NCBI GenBank assembly: GCA_963664705.1 | Contig: OY761556.1 | Location: forward strand, 6,208,001-6,272,000 | Direction of reading: 5' to 3' | DNA length: 64,000 bases | From: Acidobacteriota bacterium | GTDB taxonomy: Bacteria > Acidobacteriota > UBA6911 | Part shown: positions 12,035 through 12,508 of the stretch, piece by piece | Position numbering within the stretch: the first letter of the stretch is position 1 | How the letters are laid out: each line of letters opens with the position of its first letter | Program-made: the position numbers and the translations under genes | Notes under the pieces: generated by a model | Seen by the model: only the letters and a program-made list of their open reading frames with translations | Database searches by the model: none | What the model was told of the DNA's origin: nothing

Positions 12035-12508
12035 TCAGGACTGCTTGGGGTTCGAGTCCGACCCTGCAGCGGAGTTCGGGATGTTGGGCCAGCCGGTTTC
12101 ATCCACTTCGTGAATCGGGTCCACCAGCAAAAGCTCCTGCATGTCCGTATATTTATTCAATACCGGAGCGGTAAACACCCTGCGTGGCTGATGCTCCGAA
12201 TTTCCGGAAGCTTTTTCCTCCGCAGAGACCGCAGGGTCCGGCACGATCAGGTTCTCGGCAATGATGCGTTGAATGAATTCCGCAACCGCCGTTTCAATAT
12301 CCTTCGCGGAGCCGTCGTAGATGCGGGACAGATGTAATAAAATTTCGCCTGCTGTGAATCCACTCTCCAGCATTGACCAGATTTCCGCGCCCAGCGTGTC
12401 AATGCTGTAATAGTTGCCGCTGGCGAGGTTGACGATAACAATCTCATCGTCAAAATTTTCCAGGATGACATCGGGCTTGTTGGTTCGATATCGGTCACTC
12501 TCGTTCAT
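12035..12508 (-). CDS. PqqD-family / RiPP recognition element (RRE) protein with a C-terminal leader-like tail
   Basis: RRE core FDDEIVIVNLASGNYYSI...GAEIW...FIQRIIAENLI, followed by the tail FTAPVLNKYTDMQELLLVDPIHEVDETGWP. Start ATG 12508 with RBS GGAGG. Confidence 0.85.
   Translation of the reverse strand: MNESDRYRTNKPDVILENFDDEIVIVNLASGNYYSIDTLGAEIWSMLESGFTAGEILLHLSRIYDGSAKDIETAVAEFIQRIIAENLIVPDPAVSAEEKASGNSEHQPRRVFTAPVLNKYTDMQELLLVDPIHEVDETGWPNIPNSAAGSDSNPKQS

Follow-up and report, generated by a model that had tools for sequence, protein, structure and literature searches.

The linear polyphosphorylated peptide (LPP) clusters of Bacillota (LppA/B/K/S/D/N) are the closest known system to the locus described here (Popov et al. 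2026, PMC13381572). According to the accessible parts of that paper, LPP precursors have variable C termini, LppA is phosphorylated on the Ser at Tyr+18, and LppK does not accept even Thr or Tyr. Related reactions are described in the available text of two further reports: BsfA undergoes RRE-assisted, leader-dependent Ser phosphorylation at Tyr+19 (PMC10368454), and in pseudomycoidin the C-terminal Ser is phosphorylated and PsmN is then needed to place hexoses on the phosphate (PMC6993621). Within the accessible parts of these three sources, the characterised kinases of this kind act on Ser, and an Asp acceptor is without precedent. RREs normally bind a separate precursor. The available text of the RRE-Finder paper mentions RRE-glycosyltransferase and RRE-GST fusions, not the fusion of an RRE to a precursor-like tail (PMC7470986). 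No description of such an RRE-tail fusion was found in the accessible parts of the open literature, and a search of the open literature with the tail's own letters returned 0 papers.

Here, we analysed a stretch of DNA of 64,000 nucleotides (the window) that encodes an RRE with a precursor-like peptide fused behind it. Compared with what the accessible parts of PMC13381572 describe for LPP clusters, this locus and its relatives likewise combine an RRE with an HprK-like kinase, an NTP transferase and, in many cases, an MsbA-like exporter in the midst of genes for glycosyltransferases, lack a cyclase, and share the aromatic-x-x-Pro-x-aliphatic leader motif and the pocket residues. Unlike LPP clusters, they have the precursor-like peptide behind the RRE, no SpI peptidase, a nearly invariant core-like part, Asp at the register of Ser3, GT2 genes in the cassette and a distribution over many phyla. 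The locus therefore works most like an LPP module, yet is not a member, because it has no SpI, no discrete precursor and no Ser at the acceptor register. As described in the available text on the psm (PMC6993621), Bsf (PMC10368454) and paeninodin systems, these share with the present locus a lasso-B1-type RRE, an HprK-family kinase and an uncharacterised NTP transferase. In those systems a peptide with a leader is phosphorylated with the help of the RRE, and the same may take place here by analogy. Unlike those systems, the present one has no B2 peptidase, macrolactam synthetase, discrete precursor or conserved C-terminal or ring Ser. The best-scoring curated models were NCBIfam TIGR04352 and TIGR04355 (HprK-related kinase A and B) and NF033536 (lasso PqqD chaperone). 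Their scores were far below the cut-offs (42.8 and 35.5 against 200 for the kinase, 52.5 against 80 for the RRE), and none covers the tail.

The RRE-tail gene and its cassette

The features of the locus are as follows.

12035–12508, minus strand: RRE-tail gene, 157 aa (ORF translation; homologues begin at the same Met)
12236–12493, minus strand: RRE (PqqD, lasso-B1-like) domain, residues 6–91 (PF05402, structural matches, profile matches)
12176–12235, minus strand: variable linker, residues 92–111 (top-residue frequency 0.27)
12146–12175, minus strand: leader-like segment F112-x-x-P115-x-L117 to T121 (predicted docking in its own RRE groove)
12086–12145, minus strand: conserved core-like segment D122–P141 (top-residue frequency 0.95)
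12035–12085, minus strand: variable C-terminal end with the stop codon (Ser-rich in this copy only)
10937–12025, minus strand: HprK/PEPCK-fold kinase, 362 aa (profile matches below curated cut-offs)
10213–10944, minus strand: GT2 glycosyltransferase (PF00535, E 3.9e-31)
9039–10244, minus strand: PF14907 nucleotidyltransferase-family protein (PF14907, E 1e-43)
12746–13453, minus strand: GT2 glycosyltransferase (PF00535, E 3.9e-36)
13450–14295, minus strand: GT2 glycosyltransferase (PF00535, E 8.5e-34)
7807–8934, same strand: M29-like aminopeptidase gene directly downstream of the cassette (weak Pfam match)

The initial annotation had read an RRE, a linker and an FxxPxL tail in one ORF, and this was borne out by the 157-residue translation, by PF05402 and by the alignment of homologues. 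PF05402 spans residues 22–88 with an E value of 1.9e-11 and 44.5 bits, above its cut-off of 23.4. The peptide that had drawn attention runs from F112 (12173–12175) to P141 (12086–12088), and the Ser-rich end corresponds to residues 145–157. A GGAGG sequence at 12519–12523 lies 10 bases ahead of the ATG.

The cassette of the window is a co-directional run of GT2, GT2, RRE-tail, HprK-like kinase, GT2 and PF14907 genes. The kinase keeps H166, a Walker A motif (G181–T189) and D204-D205. Its model had a pLDDT of 93.5 and gave PEP carboxykinases as structural matches; this fold is common to HPr kinase. No sequence relative of the kinase was found in the PDB at E <0.35. The PF14907 protein carries a conserved DxD motif and is probably PsmN/LppN-like.

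Scanning GTDB genomes produced 552 matches to the patterns; 515 places were confirmed, and the best 80 of these were kept as loci. Among these best 80 of 515, the kinase was present in 74, PF14907 in 55 and GT2 in 66 (164 copies). Of the 50 loci with at least 8 kb of downstream sequence, 49 had the kinase and 43 had PF14907. Further neighbours were GT4, sugar epimerase, SDR, methyl-, sulfo- and fucosyltransferase families, deacetylases, flippases and ABC exporters, and those typical of surface glycans included Wzx-type flippases, ABC-2 permeases, sulfotransferases, GT10, GT25, FkbM and deacetylases. In genomes with several copies, each RRE-tail gene had its own kinase (three with three in G405, two with two in G530). 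The three copies of G405 lie at C1 59520, 263444 and 270617, and two of them face each other within 8 kb. In eight loci (L018, L035, L045, L048, L053, L060, L061 and L134), proteins of about 600 aa consist of the kinase and a C-terminal GT2, as assigned by Pfam for L061 and by length and clustering for the other seven. These fusions tie the kinase to glycan synthesis.

Conservation and distribution of the tail

The homologue search yielded 838 proteins among 920 candidates of 86–275 residues. In the alignment of 118 of the 120 listed homologues (two with long N-terminal extensions were excluded), the mean top-residue frequency was 0.95 for residues 122–141, 0.72 for residues 112–121 and 0.61 for the RRE; the linker reached 0.27, and residues 142–157 reached 0.25. 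A comparison of the tail across homologues had been proposed by the initial annotation: the tail (residues 112–141) is better conserved than the RRE, far from chance. F112 was found in 113, P115 in 118 and L117 in 112 of the 118 homologues. In these unselected homologues, D122 and P131 were present in 118/118 and D130 in 117/118, and none of the three varied in an alignment of 88 rows that takes in divergent members; their presence in 309/309 sequences of a larger set is circular, as the filter for that set demanded them.

A profile restricted to the 34-residue tail matched 2,944 representatives (50% identity clusters) at E ≤0.001. Among the newly listed matches of at least 130 aa, 108 of 110 contained an RRE, and the 36 short matches among 146 new representatives formed a ladder of N-terminally cut RRE-tail pieces. 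The best 80 of the 515 loci came from Bacteroidota, Chloroflexota, Cyanobacteriota, Nitrospirota, Acidobacteriota, Bacillota, deltaproteobacterial groups and others. In random genome samples, the tail was found in 15/401 genomes of the window's phylum, 25/351 of another phylum and 6/400 of one class, three of these matches being marginal (E >0.002). No relative of the family was found in viral contigs, no RNA holder was listed, and the ESM Atlas gave PqqD clusters only. In ten genomes of 1.7–2.5 Mb from the phylum of G401 (L112–L121), a divergent RRE-tail clade was found in which 9/10 members lack the leader motif's Pro; the clade has kept the rest of the tail and gained a longer charged end.

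In another reading, the tail is no more than a structural part of a PqqD-like chaperone whose substrate is a different one. In genomes the tail was not found alone, as 47 of 48 clear matches in genomes stood behind a detectable RRE and the remaining one lay in a 152-aa frame, and word searches, a weak test, gave no shorter or longer tail-bearing proteins. Against this reading, AlphaFold assigned low confidence to residues 121–157, with successive blocks after residue 120 at pLDDT 64, 57 and 44 and values <50 at residues 130–133; a groove filled by the protein's own segment would leave other leaders no room, and no gene for another substrate was found. We therefore consider a purely structural tail very improbable.

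Predicted docking of the leader-like segment

The initial annotation had interpreted FxxPxL as a leader tethered in cis. Four lines of evidence lead us to judge it probable that this segment docks in the groove of its own RRE: the lasso-B1-like RRE, the confidence of the AlphaFold model, a sister subfamily with YxxPxL, and a matching change at RRE position 74.

The top matches in Foldseek and VIA-align were the leader complexes of TbiB1 and FusB1/TfuB1, with Z scores of 12.4 and 11.8 and an rmsd of 1.5 over 84–85 aligned residues (TbiB1: Z 12.4, 84 residues). The RRE-family profile matched 5v1u, 9x90, 6jx3 and 9x8z and aligned without gaps to TbiB1, PbaB1 and LppB across the leader pocket, which is intact here (Y34, D37, Y64, A74, F78 and L87). 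The pocket residues Y39, Y69, F83 and L92 of PbaB1, as given in the accessible parts of PMC13381572, correspond to Y34, Y64, F78 and L87. Among the 118 homologues, Y34 was kept in 112, Y64 in 114, F78 in 73 (Leu in 40) and L87 in 112.

It had been suggested that AlphaFold be used to see if FTAPVLNKY joins the RRE sheet. The model gave a pLDDT of 95 for residues 111–120 and a strand at 117–120, which fits docking, and the docking itself is read from this confidence and secondary structure. The linker from position 88 to the aromatic residue measured 18–33 residues in 309/309 homologues and was never shorter than 18, as a fold-back would require. Among the best 80 GTDB loci, F112 was present in 79 (Y in one) and P115 in all 80; neither residue was part of the search patterns. 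In divergent members the aromatic residue or the Pro of the motif is lost, which could reflect a relaxed need for affinity in a tether.

The sister subfamily, termed here Tyr-type, was reached via two divergent matches and gave 172 confirmed metagenome places, of which 80 were kept and 79 parsed. The canonical YxxPxL occurred in 79/79 parsed loci, Y112 and P115 again lying outside the search patterns. RRE position 74 corresponds by alignment to D70 of LppB and Q79 of PbaB1. According to the accessible text of PMC13381572, D70 of LppB forms a hydrogen bond with the leader Tyr, and PbaB1 acquires binding of a Tyr leader when it carries both G42N and Q79D. Position 74 was D or N in 70/71 Tyr-type (DPP) proteins; in Phe-type proteins it was A, S or G in 183/214 and D in 2/214. 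In a quick tree of the RRE only (93 of 309 rows), a single branch with a support of 99 sets the Tyr-type RREs apart from the others, so that the match between Tyr and Asp74 is mostly one evolutionary event. Among the Tyr switches inside the Phe group, Asp74 accompanied only one of four. Direct-coupling analysis (310 rows, effective 202) ranked the Y64–F112 pair 16th of 6,565, and its top tail–RRE pairs track the subfamily split. Distance correlations were 0.83 for RRE and kinase, 0.76 for tail and kinase and 0.66 for RRE and tail, which reflect shared descent. The Tyr-type loci (L138–L217, L095 and L123) have a Pro-rich tail without His133, and their neighbours are often GT4, sugar epimerase and AsnB-like genes.

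Precursor, peptidase and cyclase genes

Of 620 small ORFs lying in gaps within 80 cassettes, 18 contained [YFW]xxPx[LIV], compared with 18.4 ± 4.0 after shuffling; no small ORF with a leader motif was present in the three gaps of the window's cassette. With no discrete precursor above chance in these gaps, the results support the proposal that an RRE-precursor-like fusion explains why no separate precursor gene is visible.

The initial annotation had further proposed a lasso-like core cyclised at D136 or E137 and a paeninodin-like phosphorylation of the C-terminal Ser. In such a lasso precursor, V129 would be joined to D136 or E137; the RRE is nearest to lasso B1 proteins, and taking F112 as position −17 sets D136 and E137 at core positions 8–9. 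The same spacing places L127 at −2 (Leu in 111/118), and the penultimate Thr is indeed absent, as had been noted. The enzymes are missing as well. PF13471, the leader peptidase, had 0 matches in this genome (98% complete), and the eight PF00733 matches of the genome (asparagine-synthase homologues) all lie more than 0.7 Mb from the window. A set of 214 further same-strand ORFs near cassettes contained no match to PF13471, PF00733 or a signal peptidase at E 1e-8. AsnB-like genes did occur in 6/80 Tyr-type and 1/80 Phe-type loci; the one inspected (L211) is full length, with 632 aa and an N-terminal Cys-Gly motif of the kind typical for glutamine amidotransferases. Position 136 was Leu in 67/79 Tyr-type tails, so that the acidic pair 136–137 is not kept. 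The Ser-rich end does exist in this copy, although it is no family feature, Ser being the last residue in 10/120 and 17/309 homologues, and the proposed phosphorylation of a C-terminal Ser is not supported. The gene set encodes nothing that would close a ring or cut the peptide, so that a lasso peptide is not its product; the lasso reading is largely refuted by the missing enzymes, and we regard it as scarcely credible.

A linear product is the other way in which the tail could leave the protein. As an LPP-like RiPP, the tail would be modified, cut by a protease encoded elsewhere and exported as a phospho-glycopeptide. The core gene set equals that of LPP clusters minus SpI, and a cluster of MsbA-like exporters occurred in 27/81 loci, a count that takes in L081 as well as some ABC genes that are not related. 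A peptidase domain is missing from the representative exporter, however, and the cassette of the window has no exporter. No peptidase recurred among the ORF clusters common to at least three of the 80 loci, no SpI-like leader peptidase was found in the window's cassette, the clustered ORFs or the 214 further ORFs, and the latter included a single S8 protease. The nearly invariant core over many phyla also stands against the variable C termini of LPP precursors (accessible parts of PMC13381572). A released peptide thus appears improbable, and cleavage of the tail is doubtful because no peptidase recurs in the 80 cassettes. The M29-like gene downstream of the window's cassette was rejected as a leader peptidase, as it occurs in no other related locus.

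Candidate acceptor and proposed mechanism

Among 309 homologues, the tail has no universal Ser, Thr, Tyr or His. In residues 118–140, 18/309 tails lack Ser and Thr, and 3/309 lack Ser, Thr and Tyr; as these three have an adjoining kinase, a simple Ser-acceptor model is not universal. His133 was considered as a universal acceptor and rejected: it does not vary within the Phe type but is missing from the Tyr type, which often keeps the kinase. D130 (codon at 12119–12121) lies 18 residues past the aromatic residue, in the register of the LPP phosphoserine. Asp130 is the best acceptor candidate, as judged from its retention in both subfamilies, from this register and from the lack of any universal Ser, Thr, Tyr or His. 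If the tail is a kinase substrate across the whole family, Asp would be the only shared nucleophile.

From these results, we propose that the RRE-tail protein is a self-presenting, uncleaved acceptor with the substrate built in, whose tail would be modified in place as a primer for a glycan. We put the probability of this reading at roughly 50%. By prediction, the groove of the RRE takes up the FxxPxL segment of the same chain, by which residues 122–141 would be presented to the kinase and the PF14907 transferase. By analogy with LPP, Bsf and pseudomycoidin, the kinase would act first, a sugar would then be placed on the phosphate, and the glycan may be extended by GT2 and GT4 enzymes; given the missing peptidases, the tail presumably stays uncleaved. 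A more specific version, in which the HprK-fold kinase forms an aspartyl phosphate on Asp130, PF14907 adds the first sugar and GT2/GT4 enzymes build the chain on an uncleaved peptide arm, is improbable. If it did, the protein would be a dedicated carrier for glycan assembly, likened to the lipid phosphate in membrane pathways, and an Asp acceptor would be new chemistry for this kinase family.

The strongest competitor of the built-in acceptor is a scaffold or activator, in which a leader mimic keeps the RRE permanently loaded and the unmodified tail, an acidic and hydrophobic docking peptide, assembles or activates the kinase, transferase and glycosyltransferases on another acceptor such as a lipid-linked or surface glycan. 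The surface-glycan enzymes among the neighbours agree with it, as do the lack of a universal hydroxyl or His and the fact that conservation falls largely on hydrophobic residues (L126–L129 and W140). Moreover, no kinase was found in four of the nine large Tyr-type loci (those with 4 kb on both sides), although one may lie elsewhere in those genomes; their tails, including D130, were intact, which fits a tail that serves in docking or is acted on directly by the transferase. On the other hand, the known counterparts of all three core enzymes act on RRE-bound peptides, no separate precursor was found, and it would have to be by coincidence that an invariant Asp130 stands in the acceptor register. 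We therefore hold a scaffold role to be possible, although clearly less probable than the built-in acceptor.

The RRE-tail family extends over 2,944 clusters and 515 GTDB places. As it seems to unite leader and acceptor in a single chain, it would represent a new arrangement among RiPPs, employed alongside glycan enzymes in place of ring-closing enzymes. It offers a simple test bed for the function of PsmN/LppN-type transferases and for the place of such modules in polysaccharide loci.

Other observations

The genome encodes a second RRE at L081:4771–12180 (G000:C1, ~1,387,800–1,395,200), next to polysaccharide genes. It is accompanied by an ABC exporter, a PF14907-like gene and radical-SAM-like, Walker A/DD kinase-like and possible signal-peptidase-like genes, the last three labels resting on motifs only; the arrangement resembles the LPP layout with a radical SAM enzyme. 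A second, distant match to an HprK-like kinase was found at G000:C1:3722087–3722620, about 11 kb from an asparagine-synthase homologue. Within the window, a run of genes at 14596–19163 resembles a NiFe hydrogenase (sulfhydrogenase-type) operon with a maturation protease, again by motifs only. The translations of two ORFs, at ~21640–21930 and 21998–22315 of the window, share a long near-identical stretch, a sign of a direct repeat that is a few hundred bases long.
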